Assembly: GCA_035273665.1 (NCBI GenBank)
Contig: DATEOW010000128.1
Coordinates: 4,609 to 68,608, forward strand
From: Burkholderiales bacterium
GTDB taxonomy: Bacteria > Pseudomonadota > Gammaproteobacteria > Burkholderiales > SG8-39
Length of the DNA: 64,000 nt
Direction of reading: 5' to 3'
The position numbers and the translations under genes are program-made. The notes beneath the pieces are model-generated. The model was not told the DNA's origin. It did not search any database and saw only the letters and a list, made by a program, of their open reading frames with translations. Each line of letters begins with the position of its first letter. The first letter of the stretch is position 1. This document shows positions 2,673-58,025 of this stretch, one piece after another.

Positions 2673-3496
2673 TACGCAGGAAAATATTTAGGGCGTTGGT
2701 ATTTGCGCTGGCATCAGTTACTGCGCCTGCCATGGCGCAACAGTTCATTACTGTCGCTTCGACGACTTCAACCGAGCAATCGGGCCTCTTCAAGCACATT
2801 CTGCCGATATTCACGGCCAAGACGGGGATCGACGTTCGGGTTGTCGCGCTTGGCACGGGGCAAGCACTCGATATGGCACGACGTGGCGATGCAGATGTCG
2901 TGTTCGTTCACGCCAAAGCGGCAGAGGAAAAATTCGTCAATGAAGGTTTTGGCGTCAGGCGGTATCCCGTGATGTACAACGATTTCGTTATCGTTGGCCC
3001 CCAGAACGATCCGGCCAAGGTGGCCGGCATGAAGGGCGCCGTCGAGGCGCTAAAAAAGATTAAGGCGGCGAGTGTTCCCTTCGTGTCGCGGGGCGATAGG
3101 AGCGGCACACATATCGCCGAACTCTCGCTTTGGAAGGCCGCCGGCATCGATATCGATGAGGCAAAAGGAGGGTGGTATCGCGAAACTGGACAAGGCATGG
3201 GTCCGGCGCTCAATACAGCATCATCGATGAATGCCTACCTGCTTGCTGATCGCGGCACGTGGCTATCATTCAAGAATCGTGGCGATCTAAGGGTGTTGGT
3301 GGAAGGTGATCAGCGTTTGTTCAACCAATACGGCGTGATACTCGTCAGCCCGGCAGAATTCCCTCATGTCAAAGTGCAGCCTGCGCAACGCTTCATTCAA
3401 TGGCTGGTTTCTGACGAGGGCCAGGAGGCGATCGCGGCTTATAAGATCGATGGCCAGCAATTGTTTTTCCCCAATGCCGGTCAGCAGGGCGTGTAG
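2663..3496 (+). CDS. tupA: Tungstate ABC transporter substrate-binding protein (TupA-like)
   Basis: GTG start 6 nt after AAAGGAGA. Signal peptide ending APAMA. TupA-type anion-binding motif VASTTSTEQSGL and SRGDRSGTH. Confidence 0.75.
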   Translation: MDLIRRKIFRALVFALASVTAPAMAQQFITVASTTSTEQSGLFKHILPIFTAKTGIDVRVVALGTGQALDMARRGDADVVFVHAKAAEEKFVNEGFGVRRYPVMYNDFVIVGPQNDPAKVAGMKGAVEALKKIKAASVPFVSRGDRSGTHIAELSLWKAAGIDIDEAKGGWYRETGQGMGPALNTASSMNAYLLADRGTWLSFKNRGDLRVLVEGDQRLFNQYGVILVSPAEFPHVKVQPAQRFIQWLVSDEGQEAIAAYKIDGQQLFFPNAGQQGV

Positions 3497-4279: not shown

Positions 4280-4939
4280 TTGGATTGGAGCGCACTCAAG
4301 CTTTCGCTTTGTCTTGCGCTCGCGACCAGTCTCATTCTGCTGCCCTTCGGTGCGCCGCTCGCCCGTTTGCTCGCTTGGTCCGATTTCAAAGGCAAATGGA
4401 TCGCCGAGGCAGCGCTCGCTTTGCCTCTCGTGCTGCCGCCCACAGTGCTCGGCTATTACTTGCTCGTCGCGCTTGGGACCGGTTCGCCGCTTGGCGCCTT
4501 CTATGAAAGCGTCACCGGGCACCCGCTTGCATTTTCTTTCGAAGGACTGGTATTCGCATCGGTGTTGGTCAACATTCCTTTCGCGCTGATTCCCATGCAA
4601 CGCGCGTTCGAAGCCATCCCGCTCGAAGTGCATCAGGCAGCGAAGGTCTGCGGCATGCCCCCGTTGCAGGCTTTCTTCAGGGTGGAATTGCCGCTCGCAT
4701 GGCCGGGCGTACTCTCGGGTTTCATCATGACGGCGGCGCACACTGTCGGCGAGTTTGGCGTTGTACTCATGGTGGGCGGGAACATCCCGGGCGAAACGAA
4801 AACCGTGGCGATCGCCATCTATGATCGTGTGCAAGCTTTCGATATGCAGGCGGCGGGCTGGATGTCCGCCACCTTGCTCGTCTTATCGCTGCTTGCGCTC
4901 GCTTTGACAACGCGCCTTGGTCGCAGAGTGGCGCGCTGA
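4280..4939 (+). CDS. modB: Molybdate ABC transporter permease
   Basis: 219 aa with TTG start, five predicted TM segments, ModB-like GEFGVVLMVGGNIPGETKT. Confidence 0.85.
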   Translation: MDWSALKLSLCLALATSLILLPFGAPLARLLAWSDFKGKWIAEAALALPLVLPPTVLGYYLLVALGTGSPLGAFYESVTGHPLAFSFEGLVFASVLVNIPFALIPMQRAFEAIPLEVHQAAKVCGMPPLQAFFRVELPLAWPGVLSGFIMTAAHTVGEFGVVLMVGGNIPGETKTVAIAIYDRVQAFDMQAAGWMSATLLVLSLLALALTTRLGRRVAR

Positions 4940-38541: not shown

Positions 38542-38557
38542 TGGCATAGGTCTTGCG
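38542..38557 (+). promoter_or_regulatory. sigma54 -24/-12 promoter upstream of rpoN itself
   Basis: TGGCATaggtcTTGCG. -12 is about 74 nt upstream of the rpoN ATG at 38630. Confidence 0.75.
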
Positions 38558-38629: not shown

Positions 38630-40096
38630 ATGGCTATTGCACTAGAAATGAGGCAAAAACAGCAGCTCGCCCTAACACCGCAGCTGCAACATGCCTTGAA
38701 GCTTCTCCAACTTTCCGCGCTGGAATTCGCGCAGGAAATGGGCGAGGCGATGAACAATAATCCTTTCATTGAGGAAGTCCCTCAAACCAAGACGGCGACC
38801 GCGGAAGTGCCGTTAGGCGTCCCTTCCGCCCCTGCGGCTGAAGTGCCGGTTGAGAGCGTTGTTTCACCGAGCGGCGCGACCACCGACATGGAAGGCGATC
38901 ACGATGGCGAAGAGCGCCTGGGCTACGAGTCCGCAACCTTTTCCAGCAACGGTTCCAGCGACGGCGACGGCGATTGGACGGACTGGAGTGAGCCGGAACC
39001 GACGCTACATGCCCACCTGCGCGAACAATTGCTGCTGTCGCAGCTTGGCGAACGCGACCGCGCCTTGGCGCATTTCATTGTCGATGCGCTCGACGACGAT
39101 GGTTATATCAAGCAGGAACTTGATGAGCTCGTAGACATCACACTTTCTGAACACGGTGTCACGGTTGACGATTTGCGCATGGCCCTTAAGTTGGTCCAGA
39201 CCCTGGATCCTCCGGGGATCGGCGCACGCAATTTAGAGGAGTGCCTCATGTTGCAACTCAACAATCACAAGGACAACCCGCGTGTGCACGAGGCTGCGAG
39301 CAAAATCGTGCAGAAACACCTGCAGGTGCTGGGCGCGCATGAGTTAGGCAAGCTGCAACAGCTCGTCGGTTGCGACGAAGACACCTTGCACAATGCGGTC
39401 GCGCTCATCCGCTCCCTCGATCCCAAGCCGGGATTGCGGTTTGGATCCGGCGAAGCGCGTTTCGTCGTGCCTGACGTCATGGTGAACAAGATTCGCGGCA
39501 AGTGGACAGTCACAATGAATCCCGCGGTGATGCCGCGTTTGCGAATCAACCGGAGCTACGCCGAAGCGCTGGCCGGCGGACAAAACAGCTATCTCACTAA
39601 ACAGCTCCACGAAGCGCGTTGGCTCTTGCGCAGCATGGAGCAGCGCTTCGTGACCATCCAGCGTGTTGCAGAAGCAATCGTTTCCCGCCAGAAGCTCTTT
39701 TTTGAATACGGCGAAGTCGCGATGAAGCCGATGGCGCTTAAACATGTCGCCGCGCAATTGGGCGTCCACGAATCCACGGTCTGCCGTGTGACAAATAATA
39801 AGTTCATGGCGACGCCTCGCGGTGTTTTCGAGTTCAAACATTTCTTCTCCCGTACGCTTTCCACGGACGCAGGTGGAGCGGCATCGGCCACGGCGGTGCG
39901 CGCTTTGTTGAAGGAAATGATCAATACGGAAAGTCCGACGCAGCCCTTGTCGGATGCACGCCTAGCGACTTTATTGTCTGAGCAAGGACTGCGGGTCGCC
40001 CGGCGCACCATAACCAAGTACCGCACGTTGATGCGGGTGCCTAGCGTCGAGGTCCGCCGTGCGCTCGGTAAACAAGCCGCCCGTGCCGCGGCCTGA
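38630..40096 (+). CDS. rpoN: RNA polymerase sigma-54 factor (RpoN), non-canonical genomic context
   Basis: ATG after GGAGGG. Region I MRQKQQLALTPQLQHALKLLQLS, an acidic region II, a core-binding region, an HTH, and the RpoN box ARRTITKYR. No lptB, hpf or ptsN neighbours. Confidence 0.92.
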   Translation: MAIALEMRQKQQLALTPQLQHALKLLQLSALEFAQEMGEAMNNNPFIEEVPQTKTATAEVPLGVPSAPAAEVPVESVVSPSGATTDMEGDHDGEERLGYESATFSSNGSSDGDGDWTDWSEPEPTLHAHLREQLLLSQLGERDRALAHFIVDALDDDGYIKQELDELVDITLSEHGVTVDDLRMALKLVQTLDPPGIGARNLEECLMLQLNNHKDNPRVHEAASKIVQKHLQVLGAHELGKLQQLVGCDEDTLHNAVALIRSLDPKPGLRFGSGEARFVVPDVMVNKIRGKWTVTMNPAVMPRLRINRSYAEALAGGQNSYLTKQLHEARWLLRSMEQRFVTIQRVAEAIVSRQKLFFEYGEVAMKPMALKHVAAQLGVHESTVCRVTNNKFMATPRGVFEFKHFFSRTLSTDAGGAASATAVRALLKEMINTESPTQPLSDARLATLLSEQGLRVARRTITKYRTLMRVPSVEVRRALGKQAARAAA

Positions 40097-40107
40097 AAGG
40101 AAAAAAC

Positions 40108-53139: not shown

Positions 53140-53699
53140 TGACGCATCCCCAGAATATGCGCTGTCACCCCATCCAGATCGCGGGCGATATGGTCGGGTG
53201 TACGAAGACTCGAAGCAATCCATTCGGTTTCGGAACCCACGTCCAATAAGATACTGCGGCACCCCGCTCGATGACCTGCCTCGACATCATCGAGAATGTC
53301 ACCGACCATCCATGAAGCTTCAAGATCGATGCCGCGCTCTTGCGCGGCGCGGGTCAACATACCCGCCGCAGGTTTGCGGCAATCGCAGGCAATGGCATAG
53401 GGTGCGACTTGCCCCTCGGGATGATGTGGGCAGTAGTAGAAGGCATCCAACCGTGCGCCTTCTTCGCTTAGCAAGGATTGCAAACGAGTCCATACAAACT
53501 GAAGCGCGTCTTCGTCAAAACGGCCAAGGGCGACACCCGCCTGGTTGCTCACCAGCACAAGCTCGTAGTTGTGTTCACCGAGCCGCCGCAACGCGTCTCC
53601 GACGCCTTCTCGCAGACGGATCTGCGAGGGGTCGACATTGAAAGCGACGTCATGAACGAGCGTTCCGTCTTTGTCGATGAAGACAGCCGCTTTTTTCAT
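53136..53699 (-). CDS. HAD-IIIA sugar-phosphate phosphatase (GmhB / D,D-heptose-1,7-bisphosphate phosphatase-like)
   Basis: FIDKDGTL, SNQAGV, Zn motif YYCPHHPEG...CDCRKP, GDILDDVEAG. Confidence 0.8.
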   Translation of the reverse strand: MKKAAVFIDKDGTLVHDVAFNVDPSQIRLREGVGDALRRLGEHNYELVLVSNQAGVALGRFDEDALQFVWTRLQSLLSEEGARLDAFYYCPHHPEGQVAPYAIACDCRKPAAGMLTRAAQERGIDLEASWMVGDILDDVEAGHRAGCRSILLDVGSETEWIASSLRTPDHIARDLDGVTAHILGMRQ

Positions 53700-54970
53700 C
53701 CTTCGCTTTGCACCTGTTCACCCAGAGTAGATGCCCACACCGGCCCTTTGATCACGCGCTTGTAGACCGGCTGTAGTTCTTGAGCAATTTTTTGCCAGGT
53801 ATAACGGCTGCGCACATGACGAATACCGGCGCGACCGAATGCGCGTCCCAGTTCCGGGTTGCGATAAAAACACGCAAGTCGATTCGCCAGTGCCTCCGGG
53901 TGCTGAGGAGGCACCAGGTAACCGGTGACTGAATCGACGACGCTGCTTTTGATTCCCCCGACTGAAGCGCCCACGACCGGTGTGCCGCAAGCCATCGCCT
54001 CGAGGGGCGTAATACCGAAGGGCTCATACCACGGCGTCGTCACAAACACGTTCGCCGCCGAGTAGTAATACTTGAGTTCGTTGCGGGGCCGCTGGCCGAA
54101 GAATTGAACCTGCTCCCAAACGCCTTCTTGTCGCGCAATCTCGATCAATCGTCCAATTTCCGGTGTCGCGGCGGGATCAGGTTCGGGAGTGTTGCCGCCG
54201 ACGATCAACAGGCGCGCGCGAATACCGTGGTCCCGCGCGAGGTGACCGATGGCACGAATGACGTTGTCGATGCCTTTACGGGGAACCAGCCGTCCAAGTT
54301 GCAGAACAATGAACTCGTTCGGCGATAGCCCTAACTTCTCGCGTGCGTTGGCCATCCCCATCGTGGCCATTTCCGTCGTGTCGATGCCGCATCCCACGAT
54401 GTCGATCTTTGCTTCATCGGCGCCATATAAATGGATCAAGTCGTCTCGATCTTGGGGGCACTCGGCCACAATCCGATCGGCTAGTTGGACCAGCTCTTCT
54501 TCGATTTGCACTCGGCTTGAAGGAAAACGATCAGCTTCTTGCTGATGGGCGCGTCGCACTTTTCCAAGGGCGTGAAAGGTGATAACGAATGGCAAGCCCA
54601 GGTACTCACGCAGACGTGCCGCGACTAATCCAGACATGAAGAAATTGGCGTGGGCAACATGAAACTGCCGTGTCGCGGCCGCGCAATGCGCGCCCATGCG
54701 CACAGCGAACTCCTGCATGTACGGAAGCAGCCGTTCCTTCTCGATAAATTTCGCCGGTCCGGCGCGAACGTGGACGACGCGAACGTTCGGACCCAAAGCA
54801 ACGATGTCCGGTGAGACCTCATCATCACGGCGGGTAAACACATCCACCTGATGTCCCATCTGTCCTAGTTGTCGAGCAAGCTGCGCCACATAAACATTTT
54901 GTCCTCCGCTATCGACGCCTCCAAGGGCTGCGAGTGGCGACGCGTGTTCGCTGATGAGGGCGATGTTCAT
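53696..54970 (-). CDS. Glycosyltransferase family 4 (sucrose-phosphate-synthase/MshA-like N-terminus)
   Basis: Start MNIALISEHASPLAALGGVDSGGQNVYV. C-terminal EPFGITPLEAMACGTPVV. First gene of the operon. Confidence 0.8.
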   Translation of the reverse strand: MNIALISEHASPLAALGGVDSGGQNVYVAQLARQLGQMGHQVDVFTRRDDEVSPDIVALGPNVRVVHVRAGPAKFIEKERLLPYMQEFAVRMGAHCAAATRQFHVAHANFFMSGLVAARLREYLGLPFVITFHALGKVRRAHQQEADRFPSSRVQIEEELVQLADRIVAECPQDRDDLIHLYGADEAKIDIVGCGIDTTEMATMGMANAREKLGLSPNEFIVLQLGRLVPRKGIDNVIRAIGHLARDHGIRARLLIVGGNTPEPDPAATPEIGRLIEIARQEGVWEQVQFFGQRPRNELKYYYSAANVFVTTPWYEPFGITPLEAMACGTPVVGASVGGIKSSVVDSVTGYLVPPQHPEALANRLACFYRNPELGRAFGRAGIRHVRSRYTWQKIAQELQPVYKRVIKGPVWASTLGEQVQSEG

Positions 54971-55008
54971 CTGGAAGGTTTCATGGCGTTGAAGTTTTGC
55001 TTCCTGCC

Positions 55009-55024
55009 TGCAACCCCTATGCCG
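55009..55024 (-). promoter_or_regulatory. sigma54 -24/-12 promoter of the nine-gene glycosylation operon
   Basis: Minus strand cGGCATaggggTTGCA. -12 is about 40 nt upstream of the ATG at 54970. An AT-rich tract (55030-55075) lies between it and the palindrome at 55162-88. Confidence 0.7.
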
Positions 55025-55161
55025 CTTCACGAAGAAAAAATATCGCGTTCACACTTAAGAAATTTTTCTCAGTACTAGTAGACGCGTAGGACTTGCAGAG
55101 AAGAAACGGATGCAAACGCTCGATTGAATTATTCAAGCGGCTTGAAGCGCATAGATGTTAA

Positions 55162-55188
55162 GCCGATGTGTCTGTCAGACACATCGGC
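55162..55188. repeat. 27-bp perfect palindrome (candidate enhancer/UAS)
   Basis: GCCGATGTGTCTG-T-CAGACACATCGGC. Its centre is about 150 bp upstream of the -24 box at 55023 and about 85 bp upstream of the -24 box at 55259. Confidence 0.85.
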
Positions 55189-55259
55189 AAGATGTCTAGC
55201 GGCAAGATGTGTAGCGGCAAGATGTCTAGCGGCGCGGTGTCTAGCGGCGCGGTGTCTAG
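55185..55259. repeat. Five contiguous 15-bp direct repeats
   Basis: CGGCAAGATGTCTAG / CGGCAAGATGTGTAG / CGGCAAGATGTCTAG / CGGCGCGGTGTCTAG / CGGCGCGGTGTCTAG. The array abuts the palindrome on the left and the -24 GG of the SDR promoter on the right. Confidence 0.9.
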
Positions 55260-55273
55260 GTATGCGCCTTGCG
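55258..55273 (+). promoter_or_regulatory. sigma54 -24/-12 promoter (SDR gene)
   Basis: aGGTATgcgccTTGCG. -12 is about 33 nt upstream of the ATG at 55305 (GGAG RBS). Confidence 0.55.
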
Positions 55274-55304
55274 GCGCGAGGGGCAAACTTTTGGAGCGCA
55301 CCTC

Positions 55305-56153
55305 ATGACACAACGCCCCCCGCAGGAACAAGATCAACAACCCGGCCGAGAAACGGAAATGCGTCCCGCGCCGCGTTCGTTTGCCGAAGGCTACATCGGG
55401 ACAGCCCGGTTGAAAGGGCAAGTAGCATTCATCACCGGCGCGGATAGCGGTATCGGTCGGGCCGCAGCGGTAATGTTGTCGAAAGAGGGTGCGGACATTT
55501 CGATTGTTTATCTGGAGGAACATGAGGACGCACAGTTGACCAAGCGCGCAATCGAAGCCGCCGGCCAACGTTGCTTGCTCATCGCGGGTGACGTCGGTGA
55601 CGAGCGCTTTTGCCGCGAAGCAATCGGTCGAACGATTGCGGAGTTTGGCCGCATCGATGTACTCATCAATAATGCCGCGGAGCAACATGAACAAGAAGAT
55701 CCCGCGAATATCACCGGCGAGCAACTGCGCCGGACTTTTGCGACCAACATCTTCTCGATGTTCTATTGCATCACCGCCGCACTGCCGCATCTTAAAAGCG
55801 GCGCGCGCATCATCAATACGACTTCGGTGACCGCTTACAAAGGAAATCCCGTTCTTATCGATTACGCATCTACGAAGGGTGCGATCGTTGCGCTCACCCG
55901 CTCACTAGCGCTAGCCCTCGTGAAACGCGGCATCAGGGTCAACGCTGTTGCGCCCGGTCCGATTTGGACCCCGCTCATTCCCGCCAGCTTCGACGCCGAG
56001 AAGGTGGCGAAGTTTGGCGAACAAACGCCGATGGGGCGCGCCGGGGAGCCGGACGAGGTGGCGCATTGTTTTGTCTTTCTCGCGACAGAGGCCTCTAGTT
56101 ATATGAGTGGCCAAGTTCTGCACCCGAACGGAGGGGAGGTTGTAAACGGCTAG
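55305..56153 (+). CDS. SDR-family oxidoreductase (YghA / general-stress-protein-39 YdaD-like)
   Basis: FITGADSGIGRA, NNAA, YxxxK (YASTKGA), with the N-terminal hydrophilic extension typical of the YghA/YdaD group. Confidence 0.85.
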   Translation: MTQRPPQEQDQQPGRETEMRPAPRSFAEGYIGTARLKGQVAFITGADSGIGRAAAVMLSKEGADISIVYLEEHEDAQLTKRAIEAAGQRCLLIAGDVGDERFCREAIGRTIAEFGRIDVLINNAAEQHEQEDPANITGEQLRRTFATNIFSMFYCITAALPHLKSGARIINTTSVTAYKGNPVLIDYASTKGAIVALTRSLALALVKRGIRVNAVAPGPIWTPLIPASFDAEKVAKFGEQTPMGRAGEPDEVAHCFVFLATEASSYMSGQVLHPNGGEVVNG

Positions 56154-56161
56154 CGCAAAGC

Positions 56162-56177
56162 TGGCCCGATTGCTGCG
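56162..56177 (+). promoter_or_regulatory. Possible sigma54 -24/-12 promoter upstream of the activator gene
   Basis: TGGCCCgattgCTGCG, 8 nt after the SDR stop and about 119 nt upstream of the ATG at 56295. Confidence 0.4.
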
Positions 56178-56294
56178 TTAGAACGCCCGGATAGCACTTT
56201 TGGCCCCTCAAGGGGTCTAAAATGAGTAAAAATTACTTAGTTCGGCAAAGCTTGCCGGTCGAACCGGGTTTAAATTGTTCTTGCGGAGGAATGT

Positions 56295-57695
56295 ATGCCC
56301 CACGTTTTGCTCGTCGATGACGATCCAGAAACCCTGGAATGGATGTCCGAATTTGCGAAGGCTGAAGGTTTTACCGTGGCCAAAGCGGGTTCTTTGCGCG
56401 CTGCGCGTATACAGCTTGCGCAAAAGAAACCCGATGTGTTGATCGCCGACTTGCAACTGCCCGACGGAGAAGGGGTGGAACTGGCCACGGATTTGGAGGA
56501 ACTCGAAGGTGTCGAGTTCGTCATGGCCACCGGCCACGCGACGGTAGAAAGCGCGGTGAACGCCTTGCGGCTGGGCGCAACCGATTATCTGACCAAACCG
56601 GTCGACCTAGATCGTTTGCGCGCCATTCTTCAGCGTGTTCCGGGCACCACAGAATTGCGCGAAGAGATCGGCGAGTTGCGTCAAGAACTGCGCGGACTCG
56701 GCCGCTTCGGCCACATCCTCGGCAATTCGCCGGTGATGCACAAACTTTATGATCAACTCGGTCGCGTGGCGCCTACTTCCGCAACGGTGCTGCTAATCGG
56801 CGATAGCGGTACAGGTAAAGAACTTGCGGCACAGACCATCCATGACTTGAGCCGTCGCAAAAAACATCCCTTCCTGCCGCTTAACTGCGGCGCAATGTCC
56901 CCCAATCTGATCGAAAGCGAACTTTTCGGCCATGAAAAGGGCAGTTTCACGGGTGCAGACCGGCAGCATGTCGGCTTTTTTGAACGCGCGAACGGTGGAA
57001 CTTTATTTCTCGACGAAATCACCGAAATGCCCATCGAGCTGCAAGTCAAATTGCTCCGCGTCCTCGAAACGGGTGCCTTCATGCGAGTCGGGACCAACAC
57101 ACCGATCGCGACGGATGTCCGTGTGATTGCAGCAACGAACCGCAGTCCGATGAAAGCGGTGGCTGACGGGAAATTGCGTGAAGACCTTTATCACCGCTTA
57201 AACGTATTCCCGATCAATATGCCGCCACTGCGCGAACGCGGGACGGATATCGAATTTCTGGCGCAGCATTTCTTGGATAAGCTCAATCGTGACGAGGGTT
57301 CACAAAAAGCTTTTTCGCCCGCTGCGCTCGCCGCTCTTTACGCGCATAGCTGGCCGGGCAATGTGCGCGAATTGAAAAACTATGTACAGCGCGTCTACAT
57401 TCTGGCCGATCGTCTAATCGATGTTGAATTCGCACCGCGCATTTTTGCCGATCCTGACCCGAAACCGATTTTGACCGTGCGAGTCGGCAGTACGCTGGAA
57501 GAGGTTAATCGCCGACTGGTCGAAGCGACCATGGCCGAATGCGGCAACGTCCGACGCAAAGCTGCCGAAATGCTCGGCATCAGTCTTAAGACGCTGTATA
57601 ACCGCCTCGCTCAATACAACGCAGAAAAAAATGGCGGGGCAATCGAACCGCTTGAAGACGAGGACATGTACGAGCCGAGCGAAGCACGCTCTTAA
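56295..57695 (+). CDS. sigma54-dependent response regulator (NtrC family: REC-AAA+-Fis HTH), no adjacent kinase
   Basis: REC (LLVDDD...LIADLQLPDG...KP). AAA+ with Walker A GDSGTGKE, sigma54-contact loop GSFTGA (variant of GAFTGA), Walker B LFLDEI. C-terminal HTH AAEMLGISLKTLYNRL. Confidence 0.92.
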   Translation: MPHVLLVDDDPETLEWMSEFAKAEGFTVAKAGSLRAARIQLAQKKPDVLIADLQLPDGEGVELATDLEELEGVEFVMATGHATVESAVNALRLGATDYLTKPVDLDRLRAILQRVPGTTELREEIGELRQELRGLGRFGHILGNSPVMHKLYDQLGRVAPTSATVLLIGDSGTGKELAAQTIHDLSRRKKHPFLPLNCGAMSPNLIESELFGHEKGSFTGADRQHVGFFERANGGTLFLDEITEMPIELQVKLLRVLETGAFMRVGTNTPIATDVRVIAATNRSPMKAVADGKLREDLYHRLNVFPINMPPLRERGTDIEFLAQHFLDKLNRDEGSQKAFSPAALAALYAHSWPGNVRELKNYVQRVYILADRLIDVEFAPRIFADPDPKPILTVRVGSTLEEVNRRLVEATMAECGNVRRKAAEMLGISLKTLYNRLAQYNAEKNGGAIEPLEDEDMYEPSEARS

Positions 57696-57704
57696 GGAGG
57701 TCTC

Positions 57705-57720
57705 CGGTACACGGCTTGCA
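57705..57720 (+). promoter_or_regulatory. sigma54 -24/-12 promoter (GlsB/YeaQ-like gene)
   Basis: cGGTACacggcTTGCA, 10 nt after the activator stop. -12 is about 34 nt upstream of the ATG at 57753. Confidence 0.6.
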
Positions 57721-57752: not shown

Positions 57753-58025
57753 ATGAGCCTTGAACTGGTTTTGAGTTGGGTTGCTCTGGGCATGGCTGCC
57801 GGGTTATTCGGCAACTTGTTGCGGAGCAAGCGGCTTCCCCTCTGGGATGTGATCAGCTTTGCCGTGCTTGGCGCGATTTTGTGCGGATTGATCGCTTGGG
57901 CGCTTCACCTGTCCGGTTGGGCAACTTTCCTTGCGCTGCTCGGCGCGATTGCAGGCAGTTATATGACGCCGCAGTACATCGCCCCAAGCGCAAAGCGCAA
58001 ACGCCACTCCTGGTTCACCGCGTAA
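57753..58025 (+). CDS. GlsB/YeaQ/YmgE-family stress membrane protein
   Basis: 90 aa from MSLELVLSWVALGMAAGLFG (GGGAGA RBS), with three Gly-rich TM helices. Confidence 0.7.
   Translation: MSLELVLSWVALGMAAGLFGNLLRSKRLPLWDVISFAVLGAILCGLIAWALHLSGWATFLALLGAIAGSYMTPQYIAPSAKRKRHSWFTA

Follow-up and report, generated by a model that had tools for sequence, protein, structure and literature searches.

Genes and promoters of the control region

The window analyzed here (the whole stretch of DNA, 64,000 nucleotides long) carries a control region from which two operons diverge. On the reverse strand, a GT4 glycosyltransferase gene (53696-54970; Pfam Glycos_transf_1 and Glyco_transf_4) opens a conserved glycosylation operon centered on heptosyltransferase and carbamoyltransferase genes. 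On the forward strand, an SDR-family oxidoreductase gene (55305-56153; Pfam adh_short_C2; 411 bits with NCBIfam PRK06701, just below the 413-bit cut-off) is followed by a gene at 56295-57695 that a preliminary description of this DNA had attributed to an AAA+ activator. Its forward-strand product is indeed an NtrC/AtoC-like response-regulator enhancer-binding protein with the domain order REC, AAA+ sigma-54 interaction domain, and HTH_8 in Pfam. The activator reached no NCBIfam equivalog cut-off, and no kinase gene adjoins it.

Both operons are preceded by a sigma-54-type -24/-12 box of the form GG-N10-GC with GGCAY/TTGC-like elements, i.e., GGTATGCGCCTTGC on the forward strand (55259-55272), 31 nt before the SDR start codon (ATG at 55305), and GGCATAGGGGTTGC on the reverse strand (55010-55023) ahead of the GT4 operon. 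The SDR box occupies the same position in the same-genus genome G001 and in contigs L039, L041, L042, L043, L068, L069, and L046, and the GT4 box is found at the same place in six orthologous regions. The genome also contains two rpoN genes, one of them within the stress island. On the strength of this conservation and of the two rpoN genes, the pair of divergent sigma-54 promoters proposed earlier looks real. The island rpoN (about 38630-40100, forward strand) encodes a Sigma54_DBD domain (203.7 bits, 39587-40060) and has a sigma-54-type box of its own at 38543; the second, housekeeping-like copy lies on contig C149. A promoter scan of 54900-55400 returned no sigma-70 promoters.

Adjoining the GT4 box is an A/T-rich, possibly bent tract (55025-55074) with 32% G+C versus about 55 to 65% in the nearby DNA. 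It starts with CTTCACGAAG (55025-55034), a shortened counterpart of a degenerate dyad, CTTCAAGCGYYTAGAAG, that lies proximal to the promoter in relatives. The IHF consensus was matched with 1 mismatch at 55113-55125, which is not above chance.

A 27-bp palindrome fused to a 15-bp tandem array

The most conspicuous element of the intergenic region is a perfect palindrome at 55162-55188, GCCGATGTGTCTG-T-CAGACACATCGGC, which spans 27 bp and has two 13-nt arms with 100% complementarity around a single nucleotide. Its last four bases, CGGC, are at the same time the first four of a forward-strand tandem array at 55185-55259 (period 15, 5.0 copies, 91% matches) that has the top TRF score in the window (101). 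The units follow each other in the order CGGCAAGATGTCTAG, CGGCAAGATGTGTAG, CGGCAAGATGTCTAG, CGGCGCGGTGTCTAG, CGGCGCGGTGTCTAG (A, A', A, B, B), which amounts to three A-type units, CGGCAAGATGT(C/G)TAG, and two B-type units. The array ends with a G (55259) that also opens the SDR box. A GATGTGT core is present in each palindrome arm and is also the core of the repeat units. From its center (55175), the palindrome is 84 bp away from the -24 G of the SDR promoter and 152 bp away from that of the GT4 promoter. The preliminary description of this architecture was accurate to the base as regards the palindrome, its 4-bp overlap with five 15-bp units, and the end of the array at the -24 GG, and its estimates of about 150 and 85 bp, with an A/T-rich tract on the way to the GT4 box, agree with our measurements.

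The palindrome is a single-copy element of the 2.56-Mb genome, and neither it nor the 15-bp units have further genomic copies, which argues against both a regulon and a mobile-element family. Dispersed related copies, as expected of REP, MITE, or insertion sequence remnants, were likewise lacking, the 13-mer of the arm having only chance-level matches elsewhere at 1 or 2 mismatches. Most of the 94 long perfect palindromes of the genome are terminators consisting of an A-run, a GC stem, and a T-run. The 27-bp palindrome is not of that kind, since it has no T-run and sits between two gene starts; it thus ranks among the few long perfect nonterminator palindromes of the genome, and a scan of 54900-55400 found no terminator-like sites. 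By our estimate, a perfect palindrome with 13-nt arms would arise by chance with a frequency of about 0.001 per spacer class in 64 kb and about 0.04 in a 2.56-Mb genome. Rfam returned nothing at the gathering score or at E values up to 1. Exact matches to the palindrome core, one each in the genome and metagenome contig sets, were read as chance (an intergenic hairpin of Muribaculaceae and an unrelated contig).

Copy-number variation of the array

A search with the SDR protein recovered a sister contig from a different ENA assembly, L038, whose SDR copy is 99% identical. Over 5471 aligned columns, the window and L038 are 99.6% identical and differ by 23 substitutions and one indel. This sole indel comprises 30 bp, i.e., two units, and falls within the array, which has five units in the window and three in L038. 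There, the palindrome is followed by CGGCGAGATGTGTAG, CGGCAAGATGTGTAG, and CGGCGCGGTGTCTAG (A'', A', B) and then by the -24 box. The first of these units has two further substitutions, and the palindrome is unchanged. The positions CGGC..G.TGT.TAG are constant in all eight unit copies of both strains.

Thus, the array combines head-to-tail copies of a unit of at least 9 bp, at least three in number and of high identity, with a copy number that differs between close genomes with conserved flanks, and it is a genuine VNTR. Variation of the repeat number among strains, as predicted earlier, was therefore observed, with two alleles, both from metagenome assemblies, making up the comparison; exact-protein look-ups of the SDR and the activator in search of more alleles led to just the one sister contig. 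The occurrence of the same palindrome and unit types in this second assembly makes an assembly artifact very unlikely. Furthermore, the first unit of L038 is a variant missing from the window, and the shorter allele therefore did not come from the longer one by collapse during assembly. The two-unit difference can be explained by a single slippage event between two TAGCGGC repeats. Both known alleles are odd-numbered and differ by about three helical turns.

Besides this VNTR, the genome has at least eight other tandem arrays with units of 9 to 17 bp in 3 to 8 copies, located in or beside intergenic gaps, right at gene starts or ends. They lie at C166:4728-4788 (four 15-bp units), C60:6022-6093 (four 17-bp units), C161:1508-1579 (eight 9-bp units), C187:6585-6639, C109:803-861, C142:17018-17053, C201:13782-13823, and C28:3064-3103. 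Slippage of short units thus seems to be a habit of this genome, suggesting a genome-wide tendency of the organism.

The substitutions that distinguish the window from L038 are clustered, with 8 in 41 bp (54932-54972), 6 in 28 bp (55601-55628), and 3 in 21 bp (57879-57899). Such a pattern resembles patches of recombination or gene conversion, or an assembly of mixed strains, rather than even divergence.

The locus in relatives

The divergent arrangement of the GT4 operon and the SDR(-activator) operon recurs in L043-45 (GT4 71% identical), L069 (68%), and L046 (68%; an NCBI assembly). L042 (GT4 77%) and L068 (71%), in which the contig ends within the upstream gene, also fit this layout. Its recurrence in more distant lineages indicates that it is ancestral.

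Closer relatives have a different upstream neighborhood. G001 and contigs L039, L040, and L041, with SDR proteins 80 to 84% identical, keep the SDR-activator pair and the SDR -24/-12 box; another gene is found upstream of the SDR, and the intergenic gap is just about 100 bp long. The GT4 operon is parted from the SDR-activator pair in G001 (L022 1-1063), L039 (3415-4000), and L041 (639-1324), their upstream neighbor encoding a DUF421 protein, except that L041 has a gene for a Gly/Ala-rich protein of 194 aa there. Directly next in G001 comes the glycosylation-operon GT2 gene, behind its own sigma-54-type box CGGCATGTGCCTTGCA, an arrangement implying that four operon genes would have been lost or relocated.

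Neither the palindrome (up to 5 mismatches), nor the unit (up to 2), nor a tandem array was present in L042, L043-45, L068, L069, L046, G001, L039, L040, or L041. Searched against 40 genomes from the family and order, the intergenic DNA of the locus matched nothing, and a search of these for the palindrome at 3 mismatches stayed at chance level (6 of 41 genomes, versus 1 for the control pattern). G001, whose activator is 94% identical, has no palindrome match at 3 mismatches. Long palindromes do exist near some of the more distant activator orthologues (G023, three loci of G035, G012, and G030), none of which resembles the 27-bp palindrome.

Two of these distant loci merit mention. In G012 (L027, G012:C38, 1490-4760), a family-level relative, an activator homologue (59 to 60% identity), two genes, a sigma-54 box (GGCATGGCGATTGC), and a GT4 gene (56%) lie on one strand, so the link between the activator and the GT4 operon extends beyond the divergent layout. 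In G035 (L024, G035:C157), a 61%-identical activator homologue is flanked by long perfect palindromes with no T-run at 3074-3101 and 4812-4841, namely, AGAGCGGATTTCATATGAAATCCGCTCT and AGCGGGTTAAGAC-AACC-GTCTTAACCCGCT.

A conserved 15-bp dyad as candidate enhancer

Alignment of the orthologous intergenic regions revealed three conserved blocks, i.e., the two -24/-12 boxes and a 15-bp dyad, the remainder being poorly alignable. The dyad, TTCAAGCGGCTTGAA (55132-55146), is a 7-1-7 element of the form TTCAAGC-N-GCTTGAA that lies 16 bp to the left of the palindrome and is the sole perfect copy in the genome. It is found without mismatches in the genome of the window (G000), L038, L042, L043-45, L068, and L069, that is, in this species and in four of five more distant lineages with the divergent layout.

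The spacing between the center of the dyad and the GT4 -24 box is 116 bp in G000, 116 bp in L038, and 118 bp in L042, and 135, 135, and 132 bp in the other three regions. The corresponding values for the SDR -24 box are 120, 90, and 57 bp, and 185, 134, and 137 bp. Hence, the dyad of the window is nearly equidistant from both boxes (116 and 120 bp), and across lineages the SDR arm is the plastic side (57 to 185 bp, versus 116 to 135 bp for the GT4 arm). The palindrome and the array lie in this plastic arm. Helical phases between dyad and promoter amounted to 0.43, 0.57, 0.43, 0.62, 0.76, and 0.05 turn across lineages and did not cluster convincingly. L043, L068, and L069 have additional degenerate copies of the dyad, one of them (CTTCAAGCGYYTAGAAG) beside the GT4 box, together with GCGCTTCAAC and GAAAGCGCTCAC; multiple degenerate copies are expected if the activator assembles on several sites.

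The preliminary description had proposed the palindrome as the enhancer bound by the activator and had overlooked the 15-bp dyad. A dyad about 70 to 200 bp upstream of a sigma-54 -24/-12 box is what such a site would look like, and by position both the palindrome (84 and 152 bp) and the 15-bp dyad (120 and 116 bp) qualify. Conservation separates the two. The helix-turn-helix of the activator reads ECGNVRRKAAE[M/T]LGISLKTLYNRLAQYNAE in G000, L038, G001, L041, L069, and L046, with the M/T change as the only difference, in orthologues that are 83 to 100% identical overall (the comparison covers the five relatives from which the activator gene was recovered). Such near-identity leads us to expect the same DNA specificity. 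Among lineages that keep this DNA-binding domain, the palindrome is absent even at 5 mismatches, and the 15-bp dyad is conserved in five lineages. The enhancer role proposed for the palindrome is thus not supported, and, given the same expected specificity and a species-specific palindrome, the conserved dyad becomes the better enhancer candidate. In our view, it is the likeliest candidate for an ancestral enhancer (UAS) here, and the neighboring NtrC-type activator most probably docks at it (55132-55146) rather than at the 27-bp palindrome; the dyad is assigned to the activator from its position and co-occurrence only.

Other distributional data temper this assignment. L046 lacks the dyad in spite of its divergent layout, as do G001, L039, and L041, the latter three retaining the SDR sigma-54 promoter and an identical helix-turn-helix. 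Hence, a different site may serve the activator, e.g., the dyad GGTAA-N3-TTACC in the leader of its own gene; more widely conserved than TTCAAGC-N-GCTTGAA, this leader dyad may be the one that it truly binds. Among 401 genomes of the order, 18 contained the 15-bp dyad, compared with 13 for a control pattern, which is near chance, and none of 17 matches fetched from other genomes adjoins a GT4, SDR, or activator gene; its conservation is confined to a close clade found via metagenome contigs. The 130 nt upstream of 17 sigma-54-type promoters of the island share neither a GATGTGT-like nor a TTCAAGC-like element, and neither site thus defines an island-wide regulon.

The leader dyad belongs to the 141-bp gap between the SDR and activator genes, which is unusually conserved over six lineages. 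This gap contains a sigma-54-like box, TGGCCCGATTGCTGC (56162-56176), a hairpin (56198-56222) that keeps its pairing through changes on both sides, the invariant dyad (G)GTAA-N3-TTAC(C) (56226-56236), and GGCAAAGCTTGCC (56244-56256), and has no Rfam match. It may represent an autoregulatory site or a leader RNA.

Origin and role of the palindrome and the array

Taken together, we favor a reading, with a probability of roughly 0.6, in which the palindrome and array arose recently, and in this species only, by local duplication, the activator docks at the neighboring 15-bp dyad, and the array acts as a variable-length spacer. As for its origin, the array would have arisen by slipped-strand amplification of the approximately 15 bp that abut the SDR -24 box. 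When the array is collapsed to one unit, the arm between the dyad and the SDR ATG measures 116 nt in G000, compared with 115 nt in L042, the nearest outgroup. In addition, the end of the last unit, CGCGGTGTCTAG followed by GTAT, aligns with the promoter-proximal CGCGTTCTCAG followed by GTAT of L042. It is this alignment, along with the one-unit arm length, that makes the array look like an amplification of -24-abutting DNA.

The palindrome may stem from the same motif. To its left lies a degenerate repeat-like unit, CGCATAGATGTTAAG (55148-55162, forward strand; direct-repeat family D2), which matches the array unit over GCA(T)AGATGT, and this unit and both palindrome arms share an (A)GATGT(GT) core with the array units. 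A single motif, in one degenerate copy, one inverted pair, and five direct copies, thus appears to make up most of the 112 bp that separate the dyad from the SDR -24 box. The palindrome would be an inverted duplication of a GATGTGT-containing unit or a quasi-palindrome that was "corrected" by template switching. Correction of quasi-palindromes by template switching during replication is a known mutational mechanism, and it would account for a 13-1-13 palindrome that is perfect, very recent, and located where L042 has an unrelated sequence of equal length. The replacement of outgroup sequence by a young and perfect palindrome fits such a correction of an inverted repeat, which we infer from the sequence comparison; no imperfect precursor allele was found among the sequences compared.

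Functionally, the palindrome and array probably serve not as the switch but as a spacer that is young and prone to slippage. Growth of the array would have moved the dyad from about 57 to 60 bp off the SDR -24 box (the outgroup or one unit) to 90 bp with three units and 120 bp with five, leaving the GT4 side unchanged. We would guess that the array affects the SDR-activator operon little or not at all and that, at most, it shifts how one shared enhancer is split between two promoters. Nothing in the comparison with relatives and with other promoters of the island suggested that the SDR promoter requires its enhancer at a set distance. In fact, the SDR promoter in three relatives and the other sigma-54 promoters of the island lack such an upstream dyad, so the SDR promoter may not depend on enhancer distance at all.

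Several alternatives attribute a binding function to the young element, and a perfect dyad followed by five half-site-like units in the same orientation does look like a protein-binding platform. We consider it unlikely that the palindrome and the GATGTGT-like units form a new operator array on which a protein other than the activator, i.e., a repressor, an anti-activator, or a nucleoid-type protein, polymerizes to block or modulate looping. The core common to the units and palindrome arms, the constancy of CGGC..G.TGT.TAG, and the rarity of long perfect palindromes of the nonterminator type would all suit such an array. Nevertheless, the activator is the one candidate regulator gene nearby, and a motif found nowhere else in the genome would demand a dedicated factor with a single target. 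The element is also absent from every relative, and invariant positions in such recent duplicates are uninformative on selection, as is the identity of the palindrome between two strains at 99.6% background identity.

Quite unlikely is the reading closest to the preliminary description, according to which the palindrome is the UAS of the adjacent NtrC-type activator for both promoters and the units are a selectable rheostat of distance and helical face. Its perfect symmetry, genome-wide uniqueness, vicinity to the activator gene, and distances from the two -24 boxes, with the A/T-rich tract on the long side, are all in keeping with an enhancer, and the number of units differs between strains as a rheostat would require. 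The odd-numbered alleles, about three turns apart, and the 57-bp outgroup spacing would keep a roughly similar face, a weak argument at n = 2. However, activators with a near-identical helix-turn-helix accompany the same divergent gene pair in five lineages devoid of the palindrome, the dyad conserved there is a different one, and G001 yields no palindrome match in spite of its closely related activator. Helical phases across lineages show no convincing preference for one face either.

We see as a long shot a variant in which the half-site array is a newly evolved binding platform, tunable by copy number, for the activator or another partner, and divides the shared enhancer between the divergent promoters in two-unit steps of 30 bp (about three turns) that keep the face. 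Finally, an assembly artifact or a mobile-element scar (an inverted-repeat remnant of an insertion sequence or MITE, or a REP element) could be suspected in a fragmented, metagenome-type assembly of 216 contigs, and the ends of an excised element, once joined, can look like 13-bp inverted repeats that abut each other, but this is extremely improbable in view of the shared palindrome and unit types in two independent assemblies, the sister-specific unit variant that speaks against simple collapse, an array that at 75 bp is shorter than the k of 141 suggested by "k141" in the sister contig name, an arm 13-mer with no genomic copy beyond chance, and flanking ORFs that, as scanned, include no transposase-like gene.

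Comparison with known systems

As a promoter-region VNTR, the locus is a known kind of element. Bacterial intergenic VNTR or minisatellite loci are used for MLVA typing, and repeat tracts in promoters can alter the spacing of activator sites, as do the TAAA repeats upstream of nadA in Neisseria meningitidis; 7-bp repeats are likewise found in the hmw promoters of Haemophilus influenzae. Our array resembles such loci in its short head-to-tail units in regulatory intergenic DNA, with variable copy number, constant flanks, and slippage as a plausible mechanism. It departs from the classical contingency loci, with units of 1 to 7 bp, in the length of its unit (15 bp) and in its location between an enhancer-like dyad and a sigma-54 -24 box, and it is known from two alleles. 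A full-text literature search found no papers describing tandem repeats located between a sigma-54 promoter and its enhancer.

The layout recalls zraP and zraSR of E. coli, in which divergent sigma-54 promoters flank an intergenic region with ZraR sites and the operon of the activator faces its target. Both loci have back-to-back -24/-12 promoters, one of which drives a response-regulator operon, and in the present one a central dyad lies 116 to 135 bp from the target promoter. Unlike ZraR, the activator described here has no named NCBIfam equivalog and no adjacent kinase gene, and its dyad is a candidate site. The NtrC enhancer at glnAp2 and the NifA UAS (TGT-N10-ACA) are textbook sites of enhancer-binding proteins, and they share with the present locus a dyad about 80 to 150 bp upstream of the -24/-12 box and an A/T-rich or IHF-type tract in between. 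In contrast to these enhancers, the 27-bp palindrome fails to show the conservation that is normal for them, and it fits neither consensus. To our knowledge, TTCAAGC-N-GCTTGAA is not a recognized site of any studied activator.

Our analysis thus shifts the likely control site from the striking 27-bp palindrome to the modest dyad TTCAAGC-N-GCTTGAA and provides a concrete candidate enhancer for an uncharacterized NtrC-type activator. The polymorphism of five versus three units is a small natural experiment, with the enhancer-promoter distance changed by 30 bp on one side and fixed on the other. Should expression track copy number, this would be a rare case in which repeats tune a sigma-54 promoter; if expression ignores it, the locus would illustrate free drift of the DNA between an enhancer and a -24 box. 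Were the tunable platform real, it would constitute a natural sigma-54 "rheostat" on the activator's own operon and thereby on the gain of the entire stress island.

The last codons of the activator gene include ATCGAACCGCTTGAA (57642-57656), a half-conserved version of the dyad with 3 mismatches. About 50 bp downstream of it is a sigma-54-type box, GGTACACGGCTTGC (57706-57719), that precedes a 90-aa ORF. The half-site GCTTGAA is found at the same coding position in G001.
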